Shown here piece by piece: positions 12,021 through 30,393 of a DNA stretch of 64,000 nt. The stretch is from Candidatus Bathyarchaeota archaeon (lineage in GTDB: Archaea; Thermoproteota; Bathyarchaeia; Bathyarchaeales; Bathycorpusculaceae). The stretch lies in contig CAWDYC010000007.1 in assembly GCA_963806535.1 (NCBI GenBank), positions 224,001 through 288,000 of the forward strand, in the 5' to 3' direction. Numbering within the stretch: the first letter of the stretch is position 1; the number at the start of each line of letters is the position of its first letter. The position numbers and the translations under genes are program-made. The notes under the pieces were generated by a model. That model did not search any database and was not told where the DNA came from. It was given only the letters and a program-made list of their open reading frames with translations.

Positions 12021-12181
12021 AAGACGCAATCTGCAAACGAATCAAATCCTAGACCAAAAAAGCAACCCAAAACACAAAGAACAAAAACTGCAAACTACTG
12101 TTGTTCTTTTAAAGACATTCGCCAGCAAAATATCGAAGTAAATAAACAAAGTAAAATATTCTTTAAAAAAAATAGAAAAAG

Positions 12182-13657
12182 CTACTGTGCCTTTGGAGTT
12201 GGCGCTGGAGGCTGCATAGACATTTCTGGCTGAATGATCTTGGCAAAATTCTTCTTTGCACGATTTTGTTTCAGCGTAGCCAGTTTAACGACCTCATCTT
12301 TGTTAATTTCAGCTGTTGTCAACTGTGTGTTTTCCAGAAGTGTTCTACCTATATCTGATCGAACGATTACGGTTGAATACCCTTCAGGGCTTCCAACTGA
12401 ACCTACAGATATGTCCGCGTATTTGTTGCTGAAGTCATCGCAGAAATTACAGCCGTGCTCTTGAGCTGCTGACAAATCTTTCACTGCAACAACATATTCC
12501 TTGCCTTCAACTGTAGCTGTGAATTTGCCCTTGTGAATCTGAGTCTTCTCGACCTTGTCCAAGTCGACTCCCATTTGATTCTGAACGGCAACCTTAAGCT
12601 TATCATAATCAAAAGCCTCAAAACAGAACAGCCCAACTATCGTAAGTTGCAAATTAGGATATTTTGTAAGCATTACCTGCTGGATTTTTCTTGCAGCACG
12701 AACTTCGCAGGGTGTACCGACAACGACGATTTTCCGCTTACCCTTCTCAATTAAATCGTCAAGTAACCAAAGCATTTTAACACGAAGGTACTTTGTGCTT
12801 TCAGCCTTAATGATGTCATCCACACTCTCGGTTACCACTGCTTCAGCTTGATAACCTTCTGTACGTTGCACAACGATGGCTGTATCAAATATGCCTTTCT
12901 GCATACCAGAGACAAGCAAGGATGTTGCAACTCCACCATCCTGCCCTCCGAAAGAACTCTTGGCTGCCAGAATTTGGCTATAGACCCCGAGGTTTTCATC
13001 ATATGTTCCTTTCAGGAATTGCTGATTGATTTTTTTGCCATCTTCGTCCGTCATAGCATACGTATAAGCTCTTCTTCGTTTGGAGTTCGTAGGGCAAACT
13101 TTGACGCAAGCACCACAACCAATACAATCGTTCGAGAATGTTTGGTAAGGTGTGGTAACTTCCCTTTCTACTCCACGTTTAGCAAAGTCTATGGCGTTTA
13201 CACCGACTAATTCGTCACAGACCCGAGTGCATAACCCGCACAGGATGCAGTCCTCGTCTTCATCTTCTACCCAGAAACTTTGTTTTTCAATACCGTATTC
13301 AAGCGCCAAATCCTTGATTTTTTGAACCTTAGGAGTACGCGCCAAAAGCAATTCTAGCAATAGTTTACGTACCTTGATGGTTTTTTCAGATTTAGTGTAA
13401 ACTACCAAGCCTTCTTCAACTGGGTAGTTGCAGGAGGTAACAATGCGACTTCTTCCCCGCTTATCTATAATTTCTACTGAACAGATGCGACATGACCCAA
13501 ATGGAGAAAGCGCTTTATGGTAACAGAGAGTTGGAATGTCTATGCCCATGCTTTTTGCTGCATCAAGGAGGGTTGCGCCTTCTTTTGCCCTTACTTCTCG
13601 ACCATCTATTTTTAATGTAATTTCTTGCTGGCTTGGTTCCGTCGGTTTTACCTCCAT
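12182..13657 (-). CDS. Fusion of a HydA/NuoG-type N-terminal Fe-S module with an FrhB/FdhB F420-binding domain (BfuA-like)
   Basis: [2Fe-2S] CYH..GSCRIC..SC and two CxxCxxCxxxC motifs, then FrhB motifs GQDGGVAT, VGTPC, GLFCFEAF, CNFCDDF..ADISVGSVGSPEGYS. Confidence 0.88.
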   Translation of the reverse strand: MEVKPTEPSQQEITLKIDGREVRAKEGATLLDAAKSMGIDIPTLCYHKALSPFGSCRICSVEIIDKRGRSRIVTSCNYPVEEGLVVYTKSEKTIKVRKLLLELLLARTPKVQKIKDLALEYGIEKQSFWVEDEDEDCILCGLCTRVCDELVGVNAIDFAKRGVEREVTTPYQTFSNDCIGCGACVKVCPTNSKRRRAYTYAMTDEDGKKINQQFLKGTYDENLGVYSQILAAKSSFGGQDGGVATSLLVSGMQKGIFDTAIVVQRTEGYQAEAVVTESVDDIIKAESTKYLRVKMLWLLDDLIEKGKRKIVVVGTPCEVRAARKIQQVMLTKYPNLQLTIVGLFCFEAFDYDKLKVAVQNQMGVDLDKVEKTQIHKGKFTATVEGKEYVVAVKDLSAAQEHGCNFCDDFSNKYADISVGSVGSPEGYSTVIVRSDIGRTLLENTQLTTAEINKDEVVKLATLKQNRAKKNFAKIIQPEMSMQPPAPTPKAQ

Positions 13658-13658
13658 T

Positions 13659-15596
13659 TTAGTTCGCCTTCTTAACTGGTTTTTTCAGTCTCTGTTCCTC
13701 AGGGATTGGCGGTGGAACAGGTTTTCCAGAAATCTTCATAACCGCCTTGAACTTGCAGGCTTCGAAGCAGCTGCCGCATTTAATGCACTTTGATTGATCA
13801 ACTATGTGAATCTTACCTACCGCTCCATCGATGGCTTGGACAGGGCAATTTCGTGAGCATAATGTACACGCGTTGCATTTGGCTGGGTCTATGTAGAAAT
13901 TTATGAGCGGCTTGCAAGCTAATGCGGGACACCTTTTTTCTTTGATATGTGCTTCATATTCATCTGCAAAGTATCGAAGTGTTGTAAGCGTTGGGTTTGC
14001 AGAAGTCTGGCCTAAAGCACAGAGTGCCGAAGAATTTGAAGCCTCAGCAATTTGCCCAAGTTTCTTGATGTCGCCTTCTTCACCCTTACCTGAAACTATA
14101 TCGTTTAGGATTTTTCTTGCTTGTTTTAGTCCTTCTCGGCAGGGCACACATTTACCGCATGACTCATCGCAAAGAAAGTTGACAAAGTATCTTGCTACGT
14201 CTACCATACAGGTGTCTTCGTCCATAACGATTAATCCACCTGAGCCCATGATTGCACCAAGTTTTTTGAGCTCATCAAAATCTACGGGTGTATCGAGGTA
14301 TTGTTCGGGAATTATGCCGCCTGAAGGCCCCCCAGCTTGAACTGCCTTAAATTTCTTTCCGTTTCGTATGCCGCCGCCTATTTTGAAAATAATGTCTCTA
14401 AGAGTCATACCCATTGCGACTTCAACTAGACCAGTGTTGTTGACTTTGCCTGCTAGCGCGAAGATTTTGGTGCCTTTGCTGCCTGTCGTGCCAATTTTTG
14501 TAAACCAATCGGCGCCGTTGTTTATAATTACTGGAACGTTTGCGTAAGTTTCAACGTTGTTTAATACGCTTGGCTTGTCCCAAAGGCCCTTCTCAGCGGT
14601 ATGGACATATTTTGGTCGGGGCTCTCCGACTCGACCTTCAATCGCAGTCATTAGCGCACTTGATTCGCCCGAAACAAAGGCTCCAGCTCCTTTGTGGATT
14701 TTGACTTTGAAGTTGAATCCTGAACCCAGAATGTTATCGCCAAGCAATCCATAAGCAGTAGCTCGATCTATGGCCTTCTGCATGTTCTCCACTGCAAGTG
14801 GATATTCTTGGCGAACATAAATGAAGCCTTCATGAGAACCAATCGCATAAGCAGCAATTATTAGACCCTCCAGAATACTATGCGGGTTACCCTCCATCAA
14901 AGCGCGATTCATGAAAGCGCCCGGGTCGCCTTCGTCACAGTTAACTATAACGTATTTTGGTTCGCCTTTTGCTTTGCGGGTGGAATCCCATTTTTGAAAA
15001 GTTGGAAAACCTCCCCCTCCACGACCTCGCAGTTGTGACTGCTTAATTTCGTCCATTACTTGGTCGGGAGTCATTTGGAACAGTACTTTGGAGAGGGCTT
15101 TGTACCCATCTAAAGCAATGTAATCTTTTATTTTTTTTGGGTCTATTGCGGCATTGTTATCCATGAGAAGTCTGTACTGATACTTATAGAAAGGCACGTC
15201 AACAAGACGCTTGACCTTCTCGCCCGTGTTAGGATCAGCATAAAGTAAGCGTTCAACAATTTCTTTGTTCATAACAGTTTTTGAAACGATTTCTGGTACG
15301 TCAGAAGGCTGCACTTTGAAATAAGCTATGTTTTCAGGGTAAATAACGACACGTGGACCTTTTTCACAAAAACCCAAGCAACCTGTTTGCTTAATGTCTA
15401 CTTTGCCGTCTAAACCTTGTTTTTTGAATTCATCTTGGAAGGCTTGAAGGACAGCTTTTGCGCCAAGAGCTTCGCAACCTGTACTTATGCATAGTGTGAC
15501 AGCGGGTTTTTTAAAGTCTGTTTTGCCGATGAGTTCGCTTCGGAGTTTTTCTAAGTCAGCTGGAGAGTTCAAACGAACCATGTTTGGATTCCTCAT
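13659..15596 (-). CDS. NuoF/HydB-type NAD(P)/FMN-binding subunit (BfuB-like)
   Basis: N-terminal thioredoxin-like Fe-S domain, LRGRGGGGFP, NCDEGDPGAFM, GGPSGG, ESCGKCVPCREG..LC, H..C..C site, C-terminal 2x[4Fe-4S]. Confidence 0.93.
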   Translation of the reverse strand: MRNPNMVRLNSPADLEKLRSELIGKTDFKKPAVTLCISTGCEALGAKAVLQAFQDEFKKQGLDGKVDIKQTGCLGFCEKGPRVVIYPENIAYFKVQPSDVPEIVSKTVMNKEIVERLLYADPNTGEKVKRLVDVPFYKYQYRLLMDNNAAIDPKKIKDYIALDGYKALSKVLFQMTPDQVMDEIKQSQLRGRGGGGFPTFQKWDSTRKAKGEPKYVIVNCDEGDPGAFMNRALMEGNPHSILEGLIIAAYAIGSHEGFIYVRQEYPLAVENMQKAIDRATAYGLLGDNILGSGFNFKVKIHKGAGAFVSGESSALMTAIEGRVGEPRPKYVHTAEKGLWDKPSVLNNVETYANVPVIINNGADWFTKIGTTGSKGTKIFALAGKVNNTGLVEVAMGMTLRDIIFKIGGGIRNGKKFKAVQAGGPSGGIIPEQYLDTPVDFDELKKLGAIMGSGGLIVMDEDTCMVDVARYFVNFLCDESCGKCVPCREGLKQARKILNDIVSGKGEEGDIKKLGQIAEASNSSALCALGQTSANPTLTTLRYFADEYEAHIKEKRCPALACKPLINFYIDPAKCNACTLCSRNCPVQAIDGAVGKIHIVDQSKCIKCGSCFEACKFKAVMKISGKPVPPPIPEEQRLKKPVKKAN

Positions 15597-16060
15597 TTAT
15601 AGTTGGAAAGGAGTTTTCCTATGGTTGTTACGGAGAGTTTGCCGTGGTATTGGCCGTCAATTTCAATCACGGGTCCAAGGGCGCAGCAGCCTAGGCAGTT
15701 AACGGTTTCTAGTGAAAAATTTTTGTCAGAGGTTGTTTCGCCTGCCTTAATGTTTAAGGTTCGTTCTATGGAATCTAAAATTCTTGGTCCTCCGCGGACA
15801 TAACAGGCGGTTCCAGCACATACACGAACAAGGTGACGCCCACGTGGTTTGAGGCTTAATGCTGTATAGAAGCTGGCAACTCGGTAAATTTCGCTTACTG
15901 GAATCTTGAGCCGTTTGTTTATCCTCATAATGGCTTCTTTAGGTATCCAGTTGAGCTCATGCTGAATATCTAAAAGTAACTGAATCAAAACTCCTTCGCC
16001 GTCAACATATTTATCGATGATTTTATCGATTTGTTCAATTGACATTTGTGGGGTCTCCAC
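15593..16060 (-). CDS. NuoE/HydC-type [2Fe-2S] subunit (BfuC-like)
   Basis: VASFY, VCAGTAC, NCLGCCALGP; 4-nt overlap with the next gene. Confidence 0.93.
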   Translation of the reverse strand: METPQMSIEQIDKIIDKYVDGEGVLIQLLLDIQHELNWIPKEAIMRINKRLKIPVSEIYRVASFYTALSLKPRGRHLVRVCAGTACYVRGGPRILDSIERTLNIKAGETTSDKNFSLETVNCLGCCALGPVIEIDGQYHGKLSVTTIGKLLSNYK

Positions 16061-16189
16061 TACGATTAGAATCTTAAACTACATCTTTCAATTAAATAAG
16101 GGTTTGTCGCTATTTTTATAATGTTCTTTGTTTAATACGGCGATTTGAACACAACCCTTGTAATCGTTTTTATTGACTTTTAGTAAACG

Positions 16190-16840
16190 TCAGTCACTAT
16201 GTTTTCTGCTGAAGCCGATCTGCTCTAAAAATCGTTTAGAAATAGTAGTGTTTTGAATTTTAAATAATTTTTTCAGATCTTCGGCAGAATCAATATCCGC
16301 TGCAAGCTTACTTGAAAAGTGTATCCTAACACCTATGTTGTTTAAAAAAGCTTGTCGGATGTGTTTTAGGAAGCTTTCAGGTCCATAACAAGCGGGTATA
16401 AGCTTAGGAGGATGCTGGTAAAGTGCATTGGTTCCCCAATCATGTGAAGGAGATAAAACAATCGCTGAGCTGACATCATCAGCAAGTTGGATGATTCGAT
16501 TAATTTCTTCGGAGTCAATGAGTGGGACATCTGCTGGCAAAACAAGAACCGAACGCGCACCTTTTTGAATGCAATAGGATGTGGTTTCGTCAATAGTTGA
16601 ATTCAAAGACGCCCCTTTAGCAAACCGATAAAAAGCTCCAAACTCTTCCGCCGTCTTCCGAACTATGAAATCATCAGCCACCACAACAACTTTGTCTACA
16701 ACAGAAGTTTGAAGCGCCTTTAAGACATCTTGCAGCATAGTTAACGTAAGCATTTCACGTTGCTGCGGTGTGAAAACTGTTGAAAGCCTCTTTTTTGAAT
16801 CGGCAAGCTTTTTTACTGGGATAATTGCGTAGATAGCCAC
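16190..16840 (-). CDS. cofC: 2-phospho-L-lactate/phosphoenolpyruvate guanylyltransferase (F420 biosynthesis)
   Basis: AIIPVKKL..SKKRLS, LPADVPL, GTNAL, YGPESF..H, DIDSAEDL; probable GTG start at 16840. Confidence 0.9.
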   Translation of the reverse strand: MAIYAIIPVKKLADSKKRLSTVFTPQQREMLTLTMLQDVLKALQTSVVDKVVVVADDFIVRKTAEEFGAFYRFAKGASLNSTIDETTSYCIQKGARSVLVLPADVPLIDSEEINRIIQLADDVSSAIVLSPSHDWGTNALYQHPPKLIPACYGPESFLKHIRQAFLNNIGVRIHFSSKLAADIDSAEDLKKLFKIQNTTISKRFLEQIGFSRKHSD

Positions 16841-16958
16841 TTTTTGAAAACCGCCAACAAGTACCAAACGAGCAACAGGATTCAATATTGCTAATTGAGA
16901 ATTGAACGTTGCCTAAAAATATTTAGATAGGCGCGCGATTAAACGCGCTTTCTAAAAT

Positions 16959-17957
16959 TTAGCTTTTAAAGTGGGGAATAATTTTGCTACCGATCAAGTC
17001 GATAGAGTTTTTAACGTTGGTGCCGATCGGGGAGCCGACTACGAATTGGCTAATGCCGATTTTTTGAAGACCTGCTATTTTTTCAATGCATACATCTGGT
17101 GTGCCGCAAATTGAGAATGCATCAATCATTTCTGGTGTTACTGCTGCTAAGGCTTTTGGAAAATCGCCTGCTTTAAGTGCTGCGCGTAATTCGTCTGCTT
17201 TAGCTACATCTATTTTGTGTTTTTCAAGAACTGGCGGTGGACTACCTGCGACTATGAAGGCTACGACTGGTGTTGCGGCTTTCGTGGCTTTTTTGGGATC
17301 CTCGTTAACTGAGAATGATGTGTAAGCTGTTATATCAACATCGCTGGGTGATTTGCCTGCTTGTTTCATTCCTTCATTTGCCATTTTCACCGCGAATTCT
17401 ATGTCGCTTGGATGACTGGCGTTAATTAGAACTCCATCACCGATTTTTCCAGCCATCTCCAGCATTTTTGGACCCTGAGCGCCAACGTAAACTGGAATCT
17501 TGTTAGCTGGTTTAAAGTTGAATTTTGCGCCTGCAGCTTTGAAAACTTCACCTTGAAAAGCAACTTTTTCGCCGGCGGTTAATTTTCGGAACATTTCAAT
17601 TGATTCTCTTACGGCTGCTAATGGTTTGCCCATGTCTATGCCGACAGCTTCAAGAGTGGTTTTGTCGCCTGCACCCATTCCAAGCACAACTCTTCCCGGC
17701 GCTAGCTCGTTCAGTGTTGCGATGGCTTGTGCGGTTATAACTGGGTTAACCATCCACGGATTGGTTACTCCCGTTCCGAAAGTGATTTTGTTTGTAAACA
17801 AAGCTGCAGCGGCCAAAGTAACATAAACATTACGGTTGCCAAAGTGATCAGTTACCCATAGGTTGTCAAACCCGCTGTTTTCAGCCTGGATAGCGTAAGC
17901 TGCTAATTTCCAGTATGGTTCTTTTGGAACAAATTCAATTCCGAATTTTAGTGCCAA
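16959..17957 (-). CDS. mer: F420-dependent methylene-tetrahydromethanopterin reductase
   Basis: KFGIEFVP, WVTDHFGNRNVY, GTGVTNP, GAQGPKML, GVLINASHP, VVGSPIG. Confidence 0.92.
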   Translation of the reverse strand: MALKFGIEFVPKEPYWKLAAYAIQAENSGFDNLWVTDHFGNRNVYVTLAAAALFTNKITFGTGVTNPWMVNPVITAQAIATLNELAPGRVVLGMGAGDKTTLEAVGIDMGKPLAAVRESIEMFRKLTAGEKVAFQGEVFKAAGAKFNFKPANKIPVYVGAQGPKMLEMAGKIGDGVLINASHPSDIEFAVKMANEGMKQAGKSPSDVDITAYTSFSVNEDPKKATKAATPVVAFIVAGSPPPVLEKHKIDVAKADELRAALKAGDFPKALAAVTPEMIDAFSICGTPDVCIEKIAGLQKIGISQFVVGSPIGTNVKNSIDLIGSKIIPHFKS

Positions 17958-17958
17958 A

Positions 17959-18243
17959 TTACATGCCTCCTTTCTTTATTTCTTCAGCCAATTGTGTCAT
18001 TTGCATTTCATTTAATGCAGCCATGGTTTTTTCTGGTTCAAGTAGCAATGCTACTTCGAGAAGAATTGAAACGCCGGTTTTGTTTTTTATGATTCCTTGC
18101 TGCATAGCGGAGAGCATACAGTTAGCGAGTTTAGTTGGCATTTTTCCTTCATTCTTAGTTGTTAAAACGAAATTAAGCAGTTGATCGGATAATGGTCCCA
18201 ACTTTTCAGCAGGAACCAAATCAGCTAATTTAGGATAATCCAT
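17959..18243 (-). CDS. Hypothetical protein, first gene of the mer transcript
   Basis: 94-aa helical ORF with GGAG upstream, ending 1 nt before the mer start. Confidence 0.7.
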   Translation of the reverse strand: MDYPKLADLVPAEKLGPLSDQLLNFVLTTKNEGKMPTKLANCMLSAMQQGIIKNKTGVSILLEVALLLEPEKTMAALNEMQMTQLAEEIKKGGM

Positions 18244-18300: not shown

Positions 18301-20967
18301 TCATGAAATAACCAAGGATAAGCGAAGGGTTTCATCGTCATCAATTTCAGTTTTGAATCCTAATCTGTTACACAGGTTTAGCATTTTGTCGTTATTGACC
18401 ATGACAAAACCATATATTTTCTGCAGGTCCTTATCCTTCGCTATTCTAATTAGAGAATCCATCAATTTGAAGCCTACCCCATAGCCTTGCCATTGATCCC
18501 CCACTAAGACAGCAAATTCGCCGCTTTTTCCGTAAGGGTCCGTAATTAGTCTGGAAACACCAATTATTTGTTTACTGCTTGGATTTTCTGCCACCATAGC
18601 AATTTCTCTATCATAGTCCAAGTTACAGTATCGTGTTAATGTTTCGTGAGAAAGTTCTTTTATTATTTCAAAGAATCGAAAACGCATTGTTTGAGGAGAA
18701 AGCGATTTGAAAAGCTCGTTGAATTTGGCTTCGTCTTCAGGTTTTATAGCTCGCAAATGAACAAGGGAGCCATTTTTGTCATTCCAGTTGGAACTATATT
18801 TGCTTGGGTAGGGGGCGATTACAAGGTGTTCATGAAACCCGATGTCTTGGATGATGTTATTTGGGTCCAGAACAATTCGTGCATCAACTGCAAAAGCACT
18901 GTTCTTATCTAAAATCAAAGGGTTTACGTCAATTTCTTTGATTTCAGGAAAGTCTATAACGAGTTGAGAAAACTTGACCAAGATTTCTTCAAGAACTTTA
19001 ATATTTAATGGAAATTCCGATAAATGTGAGTAACGATAGATCATTGTGTCCTCTATTAGCCGTCTTGCAAGCACCTGATTTAGAGGAGGGAAACCAATGC
19101 TTACGTCTTTGATTAACTCAGCTTCCGTGCCGCCTCTCCCAAAAATCACCACTGAACCGAACTGAGAATCTTTTTTGCTACCAATTAGTAATTCATAGTT
19201 TTTTTTGAATATCATTGGCTGAATTGCGACACCTTGAAATTCTGCGTTTCCACTTAGTTTTTGCACTTTTTTGGCTAGTTCATCGAAGCAAGCTTGAACT
19301 TCTAAGGTTGAGCATACGTTGAGGATTACGCCTGCGATTTGGGATTTATGTGTGACCTGCGGAGACAAAGCTTTCATAACTACTGGAAAACCAATTTTGG
19401 AAGCTAAAACTTCGGCTTCTTCTGGTGTTGTGGCAACTAAAGTCTTAACTGTGGGTATTTTATAGGCCCCTAAAAAGCGAAGAGAATCACACAAACCAAG
19501 AACTTGTTGCCCTTGGCTGTGCGCTTGTTTTAAAATGGATTTGAGTGCAGCTGAGTTTGCTGGCTCTTCAGAGAGTTCTTCTGGTGTCTGGTAAAGTAGT
19601 TCTAAATCTTGAGTATATCGGTACATGTACATGAATGTTGAAACAGCTTGTTCGGGTGTCGGAAAAGTTGGAATGCCATTTCTTAGAAGAGACCTACGGG
19701 CTTCACCGCATCTGGAATCTTCACCCATCAAGCAGGTAAGTATGGGCTTCTTTGTTTGCTGCGATAACTCCAGAACTGCTTTTGCGACGGCAGACGGATC
19801 AGATGCTGCTTGAGGCGCATAGATTAGTAGAAAACCATTGCTGTTCTCGTCTTTCAAGCATAGTTCCATAACATCTTTGAATCTCGCTGGCGTTGCTTCT
19901 TCGAGAATGTCGATTGGATTTGCCGTACAGCAATAGGGCGGCAAAATATTCCTTATTTCCTTCATTGTTTCCTGACTTAACGGTGACAGTTTTCCGCCTT
20001 TGGCGATAAGTTGGTCCGCAGCCATGATACCTGGACCCCCAGCATTTGTGATAATTGTCAAATTAGATCCTGTAGGGTTTGGCTGCATCGCCAAAGCTTC
20101 TGCACAGTTAAACAGATCAATCATTGTTTCTACTCTGACAACCCCAGCACGCCTAAAAGCCGAGTCATAAACCGCATCTTCTCCACCCAAAAAACCGCTG
20201 TGAGAAGTAGCTGGAATAGCAGTTTCTTTGAAACGTCCAGCTTTAACAACTACTATAGGCTTGGTTCTCGCAAAGCCTCGTGCAGCACTCATGAATTTCC
20301 GCGCATTCTTAATAAACTCAACATATAAAACGATACTTTTGGTTTGAGAATCAGCTCCAAAATAATCAATTAAGTCACCAAAATCCACATCAAGCATTGA
20401 CCCCGTAGACACGACGGCGCTGAATCCAACTTGAGCCTCTGAAGCCCAATCTAATGCAGAAGCGCATAAAGCGGCACTTTGAGAAATAAAGGCGATTTTC
20501 CCAGGACTAGCTTTTTCATCCGCGAAAGTTGCATACAGATTTGCTTTGGGTCTAATGATTCCAAAACTTTTGGGACCTATAATTCTCATTTCATACTTCT
20601 TTTGGAGTTCAAGAATTTTCTTTTCAATAAGAACGCCTTCTTCACCAACCTCTCTAAAACCTGCAGAACAAATTATTATTCCGGAAACTCCGGCTTCACC
20701 GCATTCCTCAACAATCTGTGGCACAGTGTGCGCTGGAACAGCAATTATAGCTAAATCTATCATTCGAGGAATTTTACTAATGCTCGGATAAGCAGTAATC
20801 CCATGCACTGTATCCCTAAAGGCGTTTACAGGAAAAACTTCACCTTTGAAACCGACCCCAATCAGATTCCCCAAAATTTTGGCGCCTATAGACCCTTCTC
20901 TGTCACTTGCACCTACCACAGCTATACGTTTAGGGCTGAACAGATTGTTAAGTTTCTCGACACCCAT
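18301..20967 (-). CDS. NDP-forming acyl-CoA synthetase alpha/beta plus C-terminal GNAT fusion (Pat/YfiQ-type protein acetyltransferase)
   Basis: IAVVGAS, ISQSAAL, SHSG, TNAGGPG, NPIDI, ATP-grasp (THKS..GV, IDVNP), GNAT QGYGVG; probable start MGVEKL at 20967. Confidence 0.88.
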   Translation of the reverse strand: MGVEKLNNLFSPKRIAVVGASDREGSIGAKILGNLIGVGFKGEVFPVNAFRDTVHGITAYPSISKIPRMIDLAIIAVPAHTVPQIVEECGEAGVSGIIICSAGFREVGEEGVLIEKKILELQKKYEMRIIGPKSFGIIRPKANLYATFADEKASPGKIAFISQSAALCASALDWASEAQVGFSAVVSTGSMLDVDFGDLIDYFGADSQTKSIVLYVEFIKNARKFMSAARGFARTKPIVVVKAGRFKETAIPATSHSGFLGGEDAVYDSAFRRAGVVRVETMIDLFNCAEALAMQPNPTGSNLTIITNAGGPGIMAADQLIAKGGKLSPLSQETMKEIRNILPPYCCTANPIDILEEATPARFKDVMELCLKDENSNGFLLIYAPQAASDPSAVAKAVLELSQQTKKPILTCLMGEDSRCGEARRSLLRNGIPTFPTPEQAVSTFMYMYRYTQDLELLYQTPEELSEEPANSAALKSILKQAHSQGQQVLGLCDSLRFLGAYKIPTVKTLVATTPEEAEVLASKIGFPVVMKALSPQVTHKSQIAGVILNVCSTLEVQACFDELAKKVQKLSGNAEFQGVAIQPMIFKKNYELLIGSKKDSQFGSVVIFGRGGTEAELIKDVSIGFPPLNQVLARRLIEDTMIYRYSHLSEFPLNIKVLEEILVKFSQLVIDFPEIKEIDVNPLILDKNSAFAVDARIVLDPNNIIQDIGFHEHLVIAPYPSKYSSNWNDKNGSLVHLRAIKPEDEAKFNELFKSLSPQTMRFRFFEIIKELSHETLTRYCNLDYDREIAMVAENPSSKQIIGVSRLITDPYGKSGEFAVLVGDQWQGYGVGFKLMDSLIRIAKDKDLQKIYGFVMVNNDKMLNLCNRLGFKTEIDDDETLRLSLVIS

Positions 20968-21137
20968 TTTTTTGAACACTCGAAATGAGAAATAGCCTGT
21001 ATTAATTATATACCAATAAGTGGTTTTAAAACTTACCAATTTTCACCCAATTTTGGAGTCTATAATTAAAAAGCGGAACAGATAAGCTTTAAAGCAATTT
21101 TCCCGTAGCCATCTTTAATTCAGAAGGAAACACAGAA

Positions 21138-21896
21138 ATGGACGCCATAAAGATAATTGCAGTTGAAAATCTACCGCTAATAAATCCTGGAGATAACATA
21201 GCAAAACTCATTTCTGAAGCCGCAAAAAAACAAGGCACACCTCTGCAAGAAAATGATGTAATAGTAGTTACTCATGTAGTGGTTTCAAAAGCTGAAGGAA
21301 ACATCATCAACCTTGATGAAGTGACTCCTTCTGGGAAAGCAAAAGAAATCGCACAGCAAACAAACAAGGACCCAGCATTAGTTGAGGTTATTCTCAGAGA
21401 AACAAAAGAAATAGTTCGCATAGGACAAAATAGCATAATAACAGAAACCAAAAGTGGAATAGTCTGTGCGAATGCGGGAATAGATAGGTCTAATGTTTCT
21501 GGCGATCAAAACGTTGTTCCGTTGCCAAAAAACCCAAACGCTTCTGCACAAAAAATTAGACAAGAAATAAAAGCATTAGCAGGAGTTAACGTTGCAGTTA
21601 TCGTTTCTGACACTCATGGCAGACCGCTTCGCCTTGGAGAAATAAATGTGGCAGTTGGCGTAGCAGGAATTAAACCGATAAGAGATAGACGTGGTGAAAA
21701 AGACCTTTTCGGATATGTGCTTCGAATAAAACAAACCGCCATAGCAGATGAATTATCTTCAGCCGCGGAACTTGTTATCGGCCAAGCCAATGAAGGAATC
21801 CCAGCCGCAATCATTCGAGGATACACTTACCAAACAACCGAGGGCGCCTCAACAACGGAACTCATTAGAGCCAAAGAAAAAGACCTCTTCAGGTAA
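21138..21896 (+). CDS. cofE: Coenzyme F420:L-glutamate ligase
   Basis: LPLINPGD, VVSKAEG, CANAGIDRSN, VSDTHGRPLRLG, AIADEL, PAAIIRG. Confidence 0.93.
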   Translation: MDAIKIIAVENLPLINPGDNIAKLISEAAKKQGTPLQENDVIVVTHVVVSKAEGNIINLDEVTPSGKAKEIAQQTNKDPALVEVILRETKEIVRIGQNSIITETKSGIVCANAGIDRSNVSGDQNVVPLPKNPNASAQKIRQEIKALAGVNVAVIVSDTHGRPLRLGEINVAVGVAGIKPIRDRRGEKDLFGYVLRIKQTAIADELSSAAELVIGQANEGIPAAIIRGYTYQTTEGASTTELIRAKEKDLFR

Positions 21897-25776: not shown

Positions 25777-26760
25777 ATGACTCATAAAGAAACTGAAGCA
25801 CATAAGGTTCCTGTTGAAGATTACCAATTTACAGAAAAAATGTCCGTTGATGAACTTGTGCAGCAAATGGATAAGGCGTGGGGTTTTACCGCGGGTAAGA
25901 TTTCCACTGGCGTAGGCATTATGGAATCCATGATAAATGCCAAAGGGTGTGTAAAGTTTCTTTCATTTACCGCTGACATCGTAGCCACAGGCACTCGAGG
26001 CGTAATCAGAGAGCTTGTTAAACGTAAACTCGTTGACGTGCTTATTACAACATGTGGAACCTTGGACCATGATGTAGCTCGTTGCTGGAAAGACTATTAC
26101 AAAGGCAGCTTCATAATGAACGATTCTAAACTGCACCAGGAAGGGTTAAACCGCCTTGGAAACGTGCTTGTCCCAAACGACAGCTATGGCATAATTATAG
26201 AAAAGAAAATCCTTGGGCTCCTCGAAGAGCTTTACAAAGAGGGCAAACGCGATCTTTCAACCTCCCAACTTTGCCGGGAAATTGGATTACGATGCTGTAA
26301 TGAAACCTCGATTCTTTATTGGGCAGCGAGAAACAACATTCCCGTCTTTGTACCAGGCATAACCGATGGTTCAGTGGGTTACCAGCTCTGGTTCTTCAGC
26401 CAAGACCACCACGACTTCAGAATTAACTTACTCAAAGATGAAGGTGACCTCAACAACATCGTTTTCGACGCCAAAAAAAGTGGTGCGTTAATTGTTGGGG
26501 GAGGAATCTCAAAACACCACACCATTTGGTGGAACCAATTCAAAGACGGCTTAGACTACGTCGTCTACATTACCACAGCAGACGAATGGGATGGCAGCCT
26601 CAGCGGCGCAAGACCCCGAGAAGCAGTTTCATGGGGAAAAATCAACGAAAAAGCCAAACGTATAATGATTGAAGGCGACGCCACAGTAATAATGCCTATA
26701 ATGACAAGCGCTCTTATCGACAGGTTAAGCAAAAAGAAAACTGCCAAAAAAAGCAGTTGA
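25777..26760 (+). CDS. dys: Deoxyhypusine synthase (canonical archaeal type)
   Basis: FLSFTA, RLGNVLVP, PGITDGSVG, GGGISKHH, DGSLSGARPREAVSWGK. Confidence 0.92.
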   Translation: MTHKETEAHKVPVEDYQFTEKMSVDELVQQMDKAWGFTAGKISTGVGIMESMINAKGCVKFLSFTADIVATGTRGVIRELVKRKLVDVLITTCGTLDHDVARCWKDYYKGSFIMNDSKLHQEGLNRLGNVLVPNDSYGIIIEKKILGLLEELYKEGKRDLSTSQLCREIGLRCCNETSILYWAARNNIPVFVPGITDGSVGYQLWFFSQDHHDFRINLLKDEGDLNNIVFDAKKSGALIVGGGISKHHTIWWNQFKDGLDYVVYITTADEWDGSLSGARPREAVSWGKINEKAKRIMIEGDATVIMPIMTSALIDRLSKKKTAKKSS

Positions 26761-29328: not shown

Positions 29329-30393
29329 TTATTGAACGCCTTCGAATAGCCAGCTCATGTCTGGCCCTTTGCGTTTTTCTGGAACACGTTCACATAGTGC
29401 GTGGGCTATCAGTGGCAACGCGATTGTTGCGTCACAGTAACATACAGCCCGTGTGCCTTCTTTGCTGTTTATTTTGCCCCAGCTGATGGCTTCTTCCAAC
29501 GTGCAGCCGCTTAAGCCGCCCCATTGGGGTGAATCAGTGGTTAATTGTATAGCGTATTTGTGGGGGTAGTAGTATTCTTGTAGACCTTTGCGCAAGCCGC
29601 CCTTCCTTCCTTTTACCCCTTGGTCGCATGTTAGTGGTGAGACGGATATGGCAATGAGTTGGGTTAGGTCTTTGGGAACTCCACCGCCGATATAGACTAC
29701 GCCGACCTCTTTGGTTTTTGTTCCTATACTGACAAATTGGTCAAATTCTTTAACAGAATCAATGACGACGTTATGTCCTTGGTTTTTAGCCATCAAAAAG
29801 GTTTCTCCGTAGGCGCTATCAACCATGGCTGGGCTGAAAATTGGGACACCGTTGGCTGCTGCAATTGCAGAGATTGCGGGGATTTTTTTCTTACCCAGAT
29901 ATTTTCCAAGCAGGTAGAGGAATTCGGCTGATGTATAGTTGTAATCGGTTTTACAGGTCATGACGAAGTCTGTGACAAGCGTTTCCATTTCTCGGTAGTC
30001 GGTTTCTTTGCCATAGACATCATAGTAACGGTTGACATCATCATGGAGCAACTGCTCGTCATTCACCATGTGGCTGCCTTGATAGTAACCTAAACCCATG
30101 GCGTCTACAATGTCTTCTGAAACGTTTGCACCAGTGGAAACCAGCACGTCGATGAAACGGTTTTCCATAAGCCAATTGATTATTGTCCATTGACCGGCTG
30201 TGCTCATTGATCCTGCAAAGCCCATTGCAATTGTGAGGTCTTTTTCTTTAAGCATGTTTTCCCAAACATCAACAGCTTCACCAAGTTTGCGTCCTTGGTA
30301 AGCGGTTTTGCTCATTTCCGTTAAAAGTTGTGAAATGCTTTTTTGTTTAACTTTGATTGGTTCGAGTTTCTTTTTGAAATATGGATCGCTCAT
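29329..30393 (-). CDS. Second deoxyhypusine synthase-like protein (DHS/homospermidine-synthase-like clade)
   Basis: YQGRKLGEA, VSTGAN, SPAMVDS, GGGVPKD, WGGLSGCTLEEAISWGK, CDATIALP. Confidence 0.88.
   Translation of the reverse strand: MSDPYFKKKLEPIKVKQKSISQLLTEMSKTAYQGRKLGEAVDVWENMLKEKDLTIAMGFAGSMSTAGQWTIINWLMENRFIDVLVSTGANVSEDIVDAMGLGYYQGSHMVNDEQLLHDDVNRYYDVYGKETDYREMETLVTDFVMTCKTDYNYTSAEFLYLLGKYLGKKKIPAISAIAAANGVPIFSPAMVDSAYGETFLMAKNQGHNVVIDSVKEFDQFVSIGTKTKEVGVVYIGGGVPKDLTQLIAISVSPLTCDQGVKGRKGGLRKGLQEYYYPHKYAIQLTTDSPQWGGLSGCTLEEAISWGKINSKEGTRAVCYCDATIALPLIAHALCERVPEKRKGPDMSWLFEGVQ

Follow-up and report, generated by a model that had tools for sequence, protein, structure and literature searches.

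Our results indicate that three adjacent genes of a bathyarchaeon, bfuC, bfuB and bfuA-frhB, probably encode a soluble complex of the BfuABC type that couples F420, NADH and ferredoxin. The genes lie in a stretch of 64,000 nucleotides, hereafter the window, from Candidatus Bathyarchaeota archaeon (NCBI GenBank assembly GCA_963806535.1, contig CAWDYC010000007.1, positions 224,001 to 288,000 of the forward strand). Judging from the sequences, we put the probability that they specify such a complex, of the 'F420-Bfu' type (Type 1), at about 0.7. This enzyme type is already in print as a prediction by Schut et al. (2022; Front Microbiol 13:946711, PMC9304861), and what is gained here is a wider distribution and a genomic context, not a new principle.

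Results

The bfuCBA operon and its subunits

The three genes, and cofC and mer upstream of them, were confirmed on the minus strand of the window as open reading frames (ORFs) and by profile searches. Domains were called with Pfam, curated equivalog models (TIGR/NF) were scored against their own cut-offs, and structural relatives were taken from sequence matches to the PDB. The bfuC gene (15593-16060) encodes a NuoE/HydC-like, thioredoxin-like [2Fe-2S] subunit of 155 amino acids (aa; PF01257, E 1.7e-47; NF005722, 143.6 bits against a cut-off of 141). The product of bfuB (13659-15596) is a NuoF/HydB-like subunit of 645 aa, identified by Pfam domains and full-length PDB matches, and that of bfuA-frhB (12182-13657) is an A subunit of 491 aa, in which Pfam and PDB matches place a cluster-bearing N-terminal domain before a domain of the FrhB F420-reductase type. 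The C and B genes overlap by 4 nt and a single base separates B from A. Alignments with homologues begin at residue 6 in both C and B, which makes the later ATG codons at 16045 (bfuC) and 15581 (bfuB) the probable true starts. A TATA-like box recognised at consensus level (tataaaaata, 16111-16120, minus strand), within the 129-nt gap between cofC and bfuC, is possibly the operon's own promoter, and a T-rich tract read at 12165-12180 (minus strand), directly 3' of the bfuA stop codon, probably marks the end of the transcript.

Along the B subunit, Pfam recognises an N-terminal thioredoxin-like [2Fe-2S] domain (residues 30-106), Complex1_51K (184-355), SLBB, NADH_4Fe-4S (466-550) and two Fer4 motifs (567-620). 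The candidate ligands are C36/41/73/77 for the N-terminal [2Fe-2S] cluster, C480/483/486/526 for a [4Fe-4S] cluster, and C574/577/580/584 and C604/607/610/614 for the two C-terminal [4Fe-4S] clusters; C463, H550, C556 and C561 would be the ligands of a Zn or [2Fe-2S] site. When 55 distinct homologues taken from the fetched loci (49 for the C subunit) are aligned, the N-terminal cysteines are kept in 52-54 of the 55 sequences and all other candidate ligands of B in 55/55, while C81/86/122/126, the [2Fe-2S] ligands of C, are kept in 49/49. Schut et al. define the Bfu family by its conserved BC core and describe non-bifurcating homologues as devoid of the extra B clusters. The FMN/NADH site and five metal sites of BfuB are found in our B subunit, and the single [2Fe-2S] cluster of BfuC in C.

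Three residue features are given for bifurcating beta subunits by Losey et al. (2020): A or E together with M in the vicinity of the NADH site, F close to FMN, and the motif GGPSG. All are found in B, as GDPGAFM (residues 223-229), GAGAF and GGPSG, and the same motifs are present in three bifurcating PDB chains aligned with it. The best overall match is the NiFe-HydB of A. mobile (7t2r_B, 781 bits, residues 32-622), followed by WorB (9mqx_B, 740 bits, full length), the HydB chains of T. kivui (8a6t_B, 726 bits), A. woodii (7q4v_B, 720 bits) and T. maritima (7p5h_B, 661 bits), and NfnB (9n5u_B, 653 bits). FeFe-HydABC enzymes are bifurcating hydrogenases according to Schut et al., and WorABCSL is reported to catalyse an electron-bifurcating reaction (PMC12318220). 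The matches to these bifurcating or bifurcating-type chains are essentially whole-length and include the N- and C-terminal cluster domains, whereas those to NuoF, Nqo1 and FdsB chains do not exceed 355 bits and are confined to residues ~130-557.

These features bear on the alternative that the complex is a non-bifurcating, diaphorase-type NADH:F420 or NADPH:F420 oxidoreductase, in which the additional clusters of B would be relics or have a regulatory function. Hox hydrogenases and NAD-linked formate dehydrogenases do use NuoEF-type modules as plain NAD(H) diaphorases, the genome has a HoxEFU set, and with the F420 and NAD couples only 40-80 mV apart in Table 1 of Schut et al. there is no proven energetic need for bifurcation. 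However, B keeps all the ligands of the clusters that are missing from non-bifurcating homologues (in 52-55 of 55 sequences), bears the three residue signatures and gives with bifurcating chains twice the score that it gives with NuoF or FdsB; a direct link between nicotinamide and F420 is, besides, already given by the NADPH:F420 oxidoreductase (Fno) of the genome. We regard a plain diaphorase as unlikely.

It is the A subunit that would set the third substrate of an F420-Bfu. Its Pfam domains are Fer2_4 (residues 11-90), two [4Fe-4S] motifs (132-191), FrhB_N (235-299) and FrhB_C (308-444). The ligands of the N-terminal part are C45/56/59/76 for the [2Fe-2S] cluster A1, and C137/140/143/147 and C178/181/184/188 for the [4Fe-4S] clusters A2 and A4. 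After a linker follows the FrhB-type module (residues 223-475; PF04422 and PF04432), with a GQDGG motif and a [4Fe-4S] cluster of its own (C317/345/403/406), and each cluster cysteine of A, those of the module included, is kept in 54-55 of the 55 homologues. Pfam gave no match in A to PF10588 (the His-ligated cluster, A3) or to an H-cluster or molybdopterin family, while the HoxU of the same genome does match PF10588. The best solved match of the N-terminal domain is WorA (9mqx_A), with which residues 13-191 align nearly gap-free (E 9e-43), and WorA is itself described as having no A3 cluster (PNAS 2025, PMC12318220). The FrhB-type module matches Fsr (7np8, E 2.6e-41), FrhB (9r51_B, 2.5e-36) and the zeta subunit of acetyl-CoA decarbonylase/synthase (ACDS; 8riu_B, 3e-32). 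F420 reduction by the ACDS zeta subunit and the FwdI of Ca. Ethanoperedens has been demonstrated by experiment (Lemaire et al. 2024, PMC11493965). Schut et al. give the BfuA of F420-Bfu as A1, A2 and A4 plus an F420-reducing FAD domain, and A has only these three clusters and a flavin domain of the F420-dehydrogenase type.

A preliminary description of the locus, made from the letters alone, had named most of these elements: a tight operon of NuoE-like, NuoF-like and A-subunit genes; an N-terminal Fe-S domain, GDPGAFM, a C..H..C..C site and C-terminal 2x[4Fe-4S] in B; and an A subunit with HydA-type N-terminal clusters, devoid of a His-ligated cluster, an H-cluster and a molybdopterin domain, that carries instead a full FrhB-type FAD/F420 domain. 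The domain confirmation with hidden Markov models that it proposed returned the expected Pfam domains in A, B and C, and the gene spacing, PDB matches and ligand counts bear out each of these points.

Distribution and phylogeny of the operon

A protein search with A scored 8000 candidates and gave 2839 relatives; among the 120 matches listed, identity to A is 64-87% over at least 92% of its length, with both the Fer2_4 and the FrhB domains present as far as the table shows. Some match was found in 264 of 301 sampled genomes of Bathyarchaeia, and the whole fused protein was spanned by 14 matches in 13 genomes, all 13 from two families (f1 and f5) of the window's own order. Among these full-fusion Bathyarchaeia the gene order is C-B-A in 11 genomes and A-C-B in three loci. 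One genome per species was scanned, which gave 589 confirmed stretches; in the 80 best of these, which were kept, the FrhB-bearing loci are archaeal without exception (53/53). The label is Bathyarchaeia or Bathyarchaeota in 27 of them, and the other 26 belong to Methanophagales/ANME-1 (ANME, anaerobic methanotrophic archaea), Methanothrix/Methanotrichaceae, Ca. Methanolliviera and other Methanobacteriota or Halobacteriota. The loci of this set with the short N-domain only (27) are bacterial in 26 cases, the remaining one being a truncated archaeal contig. The order C-B-A occurs in 48 of 79 BfuB rows, from Bathyarchaeia, ANME-1, Methanothrix and Methanolliviera. The Bathyarchaeia copy extends the distribution of the predicted F420-Bfu type.

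In a quick maximum-likelihood tree of the 79 BfuB rows, in which characterised reference sequences were not included, the bathyarchaeal rows form a starred set (support 97, 40 rows), and Methanothrix, Methanolliviera and ANME-1 together form a second set (support 99, 18 rows). Those Dehalococcoidia rows that have a short A subunit join the archaeal sets in an unresolved polytomy.

Neighbourhood of the operon and cdh-embedded relatives

Upstream of the operon, on the same minus strand, lie cofC (16190-16885; 231 aa) for 2-phospho-L-lactate guanylyltransferase of F420 biosynthesis (TIGR03552, 151.8 against a cut-off of 105) and mer (16959-17957; 332 aa) for the F420-dependent methylene-tetrahydromethanopterin reductase (TIGR03555, 443.7 bits against 348.7; NF002619, 448.7 against 276). 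The gene for F420-0:L-glutamate ligase, cofE (21138-21896, plus strand; TIGR01916, 302 against 180.65), is nearby, as had been noticed before. The position and strand of cofC and mer had likewise been described, and their identities now stand above the cut-offs, but gaps of 73 nt and 129 nt set mer, cofC and the CBA genes apart; because these gaps carry TATA-like boxes, the sequence suggests that they are neighbouring transcription units and do not form a single operon. A conserved ORF of 94 aa (17959-18243, minus strand) that lies a single base upstream of mer gave no family match; it is 93% identical to an ORF at the equivalent position in locus L004. Further upstream (18301-21039, minus strand) a protein of 912 aa fuses ADP-forming acyl-CoA synthetase domains to a C-terminal GNAT (Pat-like) domain, and such a gene also lies upstream of mer in L004/L018. 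Downstream of bfuA the window has copA and regulators, and its remaining genes are archaeal housekeeping genes (RFC, MCM, GINS, tRNA synthetases). Two paralogues of the deoxyhypusine synthase family, each passing a different equivalog model, lie ~2.6 kb apart (25777-26760, plus strand; 29329-30393, minus strand).

Beyond the window, mer occurs in the same locus as the operon only in L004/L018, L019 and L020, from the closest relatives (A at least 70% identical), where cofC and mer flank the operon as they do here. L004:634-16787 (G038:C29) is a co-oriented supercluster of the gene for the acyl-CoA synthetase-GNAT fusion, the 94-aa ORF, mer, cofC, bfuCBA, cooC, cooC, cdhA, cdhB, cdhC and cdhD, and L020:147-12271 is a similar co-oriented Wood-Ljungdahl supercluster (mer, cofC, bfuCBA, cooC, cooC, cdhA-cdhD). 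The operon thus sits between mer-cofC and cooC-cooC-cdhA-cdhB in L004/L018 and L020; in the window the supercluster is broken up, with the cdh part ~33 kb away.

The neighbours are different in ANME-1, Methanothrix and Methanolliviera, with mtrEDC following the operon in the ANME-1 locus L061, and most bathyarchaeal loci have unrelated ones, for example genes for lysine biosynthesis or for an M50 peptidase. Homologues of the genome's Fno lie directly beside bfuCBA in two loci of Bathyarchaeia (L006:11978-12712 and L019:7512-8249) and beside the operon in three Methanothrix loci (L062:7505-8212, L063:7536-8243 and L090:7554-8264), and a second Fno-like paralogue stands between cofC and bfuC at L019:1705-2376 and L020:2683-3360. 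F420-themed neighbours recur, then, in separate lineages, and the Fno genes suggest a joint network of NADPH, F420 and NADH/ferredoxin.

Some related loci depart from this plan. At the syntenic cofC/cofE site of a genome of the same genus (L017:4537-11327, G283:C1), bfuC and bfuB are accompanied by a short BfuA of 208 aa without FrhB. At a distance of 2.5 kb downstream there is a separate FrhB-family gene (360 aa, FrhB_N and FrhB_C in Pfam), and the enzyme may be present here in split form. In another genus of the family, at G082:C1:16748-19067 and G190:C29:3997-6320, mer is head-to-head with a frame of 347-374 aa that matches the Fer4-FrhB part of BfuA and is FpoF-like by length and coverage, a further case of mer paired with FrhB. 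Mer matches also fall in frames roughly double the usual length, of 647-675 aa (G063:C16:135244-136215, G107:C4:24531-25502 and G263:C11:12557-13528), which may be Mer fusion proteins.

In other relatives a derived Bfu paralogue lies inside the cdh operon for carbon monoxide dehydrogenase/acetyl-CoA synthase (CODH/ACS). In L015:1150-13627 (G166:C27), two cooC genes and cdhA are followed by a BfuA-FrhB-like gene, bfuC, a gene for BfuB fused at its C-terminus to CdhB (CODH epsilon; PF02552 at residues 636-805), cdhC, cdhD and a second CdhD-family gene with an FeS domain. Nine further loci (L010, L016, L033, L035, L038, L039, L040, L042 and L043) have the same A-C-B layout inside a CODH/ACS operon, to judge from ORF size and BLAST, and two of them, L039 and L043, are cut by contig ends. 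The GQDGG motif and the FrhB_N signal are lost from the cdh-embedded BfuA in 3/3 sequences, with the [4Fe-4S] cysteines kept, and the cdh-embedded B subunits group together in the tree as a single clade (support 100), next to the subclade of the window (support 89, not starred). No description of a BfuB-CdhB fusion was found in a single literature search. The arrangement points to a physically coupled CODH-Bfu complex in these relatives.

It could accordingly be argued for the window as well that the third substrate is not free F420 and that the FrhB-type domain is an electron-transfer adaptor through which the Bfu core docks on a different enzyme, for example CODH/ACS. The paralogue between cdhA and cdhC, with its BfuB-CdhB fusion and its place beside the window's subclade, and the position of the C-B-A operon directly upstream of cooC-cooC-cdhA-cdhB in L004/L018 and L020 would agree with this, and FrhB-like modules are docked on CODH and Fwd in Ca. 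Ethanoperedens (PMC11493965). However, the motif and the FrhB_N signal that the cdh-embedded paralogues have lost are both kept in all 13 C-B-A sequences (alignment A1), the operon is far from cdh in most loci, this genome included, and the docked modules of Ca. Ethanoperedens still reduce F420 (PMC11493965). Pure docking is in our view quite unlikely for the C-B-A form, and free F420 remains the predicted substrate of A.

Genome context

The source genome comprises 2.95 Mb on 12 contigs and is 92% complete. It encodes CofD alongside Mer, CofC and CofE, and also CdhC and an Mpt_N protein of the MtdA/B type. An F420-dependent Mtd was not found in this 92%-complete genome, and Mer is the only F420-dependent step of the methyl branch found. 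A Hox-like [NiFe] hydrogenase cluster (G000:C5:176201-181009, locus L002, outside the window) has HoxE-, HoxU- and NuoF-like genes and the [NiFe] small and large subunits; the matches to its NuoF-like hoxF fall in two reading frames, which indicates a frameshift, a pseudogene or an assembly error. A Vhu/Mvh-like [NiFe] hydrogenase adjoins HdrB/C-like ORFs, and a complex-I-like cluster has 11 subunits, without NuoEFG or FpoF. Since the genome has these two types of hydrogenase and the complex-I-like cluster, H2 may be the ultimate donor.

No hydrogenase of FrhA grade was found in the genome (TIGR03295, 165.5 and 74.4 against a cut-off of 392.5). It has two FrhB-family genes, neither of which adjoins a hydrogenase, and an Frh hydrogenase was rejected on these grounds as partner of the FrhB-type domain. 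The second FrhB gene (G000:C7:66888-69044, minus strand; L001:7888-10044, outside the window) encodes a fusion of 718 aa, in which an RnfD/NqrB-like membrane domain is joined to an RnfC-type 2x[4Fe-4S] domain and an FrhB domain 50% identical to that of BfuA. RnfA/E families gave no match in the genome. Among f1/f5 relatives, RnfD and FrhB are fused in seven genomes and otherwise take the form of RnfD-Fer4 with a separate small FrhB.

Discussion

Starting from the observed gene order, domains, cluster ligands, homology and distribution, we infer how the complex would assemble and work, with F420 as third substrate. A hydride from F420H2 would be taken up by the flavin of the FrhB-type domain of A, and single electrons would then pass through the [4Fe-4S] cluster of that domain, A4, A2 and A1 to the BC core. 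At the core FMN and its neighbouring clusters, one electron pair would be handed to NAD+ as a hydride, and the other pair would reach ferredoxin (Fd) by way of the mobile [2Fe-2S] cluster of C and the C-terminal pair of [4Fe-4S] clusters in B. The predicted bifurcating reaction, with its stoichiometry, would be reversible: 2 F420H2 + NAD+ + 2 Fd(ox) <-> 2 F420 + NADH + 2 Fd(red) + H+. With the potentials in Table 1 of Schut et al. (F420 -360 mV, NAD about -280 mV, Fd about -500 mV), the reaction is calculated to be near equilibrium, ~30 mV (~12 kJ per 4 electrons) downhill towards F420H2. In this direction electrons from NADH and ferredoxin would pass through the complex into the F420 pool, which would feed Mer in CO2 reduction; in reverse, electrons derived from Mer would be upgraded to ferredoxin for CODH/ACS. 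As a more tentative proposal, which we find possible yet doubtful, the complex would join the F420 pool of Mer to the ferredoxin of CODH/ACS and would be the ancestor of the undescribed, cdh-inserted and CODH-epsilon-fused Bfu machine of its relatives.

The role of NAD in this scheme might also be questioned, given that nucleotide specificity is not readable from sequence searches: the enzyme would then be a ferredoxin:F420 oxidoreductase with its NAD(H) site unused, or binding NADP(H) in a different three-way coupling. Chadwick et al. (2022, PLoS Biol, PMC9012536) cite a soluble FpoF as Fd:F420 oxidoreductase. The complete FMN/NADH-binding domain is, however, conserved in B, and NAD is resolved at the homologous site of WorB (PMC12318220), which makes this alternative highly improbable.

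Among characterised enzymes, WorABCSL of Acetomicrobium mobile (9MQX, PMC12318220) is a bifurcating Bfu that shares with the proposed F420-Bfu complex an A subunit without A3 and a B subunit matching over its full length. Its third substrate, in contrast, is an aldehyde, and the oxidation takes place on WorSL, which are separate subunits. WorA ends in a zinc finger and helix adaptor that recruits them, and in place of this adaptor the A subunit of the window has its fused FrhB-type domain. The hydrogenases NiFe-HydABCSL (7T2R/7T30) and FeFe-HydABC (8A6T, 7Q4V, 7P5H) have the same BC core, whereas the operon of the window has no H-cluster, A3, A5 or hydrogenase subunits. FrhB-type modules such as ACDS zeta and FwdI (8RIU, 8RJA; PMC11493965), Fsr (7NP8) and FrhB (3ZFS, 6QGR, 9R51) belong by sequence to the same fold family (E 1e-30 to 3e-41) and are likewise [4Fe-4S] and flavin modules fed through a 2x[4Fe-4S] ferredoxin domain; unlike the module of A, they are wired to CODH, Fwd, sulfite reductase or [NiFe] hydrogenase and not to a NuoEF-type bifurcating core. 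Nfn-Bfu (NfnABC/StnABC; 9N5U), treated by Schut et al. with the Thermococcus sibiricus enzyme, is also of Type 1, with a BfuA whose flavin domain deals with a hydride carrier of intermediate potential, and bifurcation has been demonstrated for an archaeal member (Schut et al. 2022). In Nfn-Bfu this carrier is NADP(H) and the flavin domain resembles NfnB instead of FrhB.

The prediction of Schut et al. assigns F420-Bfu to Type 1 and to BfuB clade 45, with two sequences counted, from some Methanosaetaceae; they found none in bacteria and state that none is characterised. They proposed the same coupling of NADH, ferredoxin and F420 by a BfuBC core and a BfuA with only A1, A2, A4 and an F420-dehydrogenase-type FAD domain. 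The C-B-A loci of Methanothrix are 47-50% identical to ours in A and 61-64% in B, whereas the copy described here belongs to Bathyarchaeia and stands beside mer, cofC and cofE. The same gene trio is recognisable in the 'FrhB8' clusters of Chadwick et al., with divergent NuoF and thioredoxin genes, which were found 'almost exclusively' in ANME and for which the text available proposes no function; the ANME-1 loci are C-B-A, with A 55-56% identical. In the literature searched, 'F420-Bfu' was found only in Schut et al., and NuoF, FrhB and F420 together only in Chadwick et al. The statement in the preliminary description that F420-linked members had been predicted and none characterised agrees with this.

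Several observations weigh against an F420-Bfu that serves Mer. No member of F420-Bfu has been characterised in the literature searched. The B subunit is slightly closer to NiFe-HydB (781 bits) than to WorB (740 bits), and Schut et al. place NiFe-Bfu in BfuB clade 49 and the Wor-Bfu group in clade 45. The FrhB domain of A scores below the equivalog cut-offs for frhB (TIGR03289, 161.1 against 331.5) and FpoF (NF040616, 148 against 475), and by these profiles it appears as a member of the FrhB family, not as FrhB or FpoF proper. Because the FrhB Pfam family also matches genomes without F420 (the Synechococcus and Bacteroides controls), F420 binding by A stands here as a prediction, to which the homology with proven F420 reductases, the confinement of the FrhB-bearing loci kept to archaea and the neighbouring Fno, cofC and mer genes lend indirect support. 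The genome further encodes an Fno-type NADPH:F420 oxidoreductase over the cut-off, a simpler link to F420, and the idea that the complex is the only F420 link of the genome was rejected once Fno had been found. The gene for FO synthase, cofG, was not found in the 92%-complete genome, which points either to salvage of FO or to absence of the gene from the assembly.

The connection with Mer is weak. Mer scores over the cut-off in 65 of the 301 sampled genomes of Bathyarchaeia; it was found in 5 of the 11 with the C-B-A operon and not found in the other 6, which are 92-98% complete, and these 11 genomes are related, not independent. The adjacency of mer is limited to the window and the genomes of three close relatives. 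Mer was on both counts rejected as an obligate partner of the complex. The preliminary description had proposed a count of mer across genomes as a check, and had seen in the complex a route that recycles F420 for Mer without H2. The enzyme type that it put forward, a BC core with an F420-reductase module on A, fits the sequence tests, but the role of a dedicated H2-free recycler is only weakly backed in view of these counts and of the Fno and two [NiFe] hydrogenases of the genome.

Bathyarchaeia are among the most abundant archaea of anoxic sediments. Their proposed acetogenesis needs F420H2 for Mer, and their proposed methyl oxidation yields it from Mer. In those cdh-embedded relatives in which BfuB is joined to CODH epsilon, the conversion of CO and CO2 would, if the coupled complex is real, be wired directly to NAD/ferredoxin bifurcation.

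The literature on Bathyarchaeia has called the source of F420H2 for Mer in such organisms unclear (Loh et al. 2021) or has paired a 'lone FrhB' with HdrABC (Yu et al. 2023), and frhB is among the genes inferred for the bathyarchaeal ancestor (Qi et al. 2021). In a 2025 analysis of Methanothrix harundinacea 6Ac, the only frhB gene, highly expressed in direct interspecies electron transfer, was likewise paired with Hdr. Our results suggest that in part of the Bathyarchaeia what was taken for a 'lone FrhB' belongs to a Bfu-type complex as its A subunit, which would give a concrete predicted route between NADH, ferredoxin and F420. The same re-reading would extend to M. harundinacea, whose frhB gene may be a fused A subunit of this kind.

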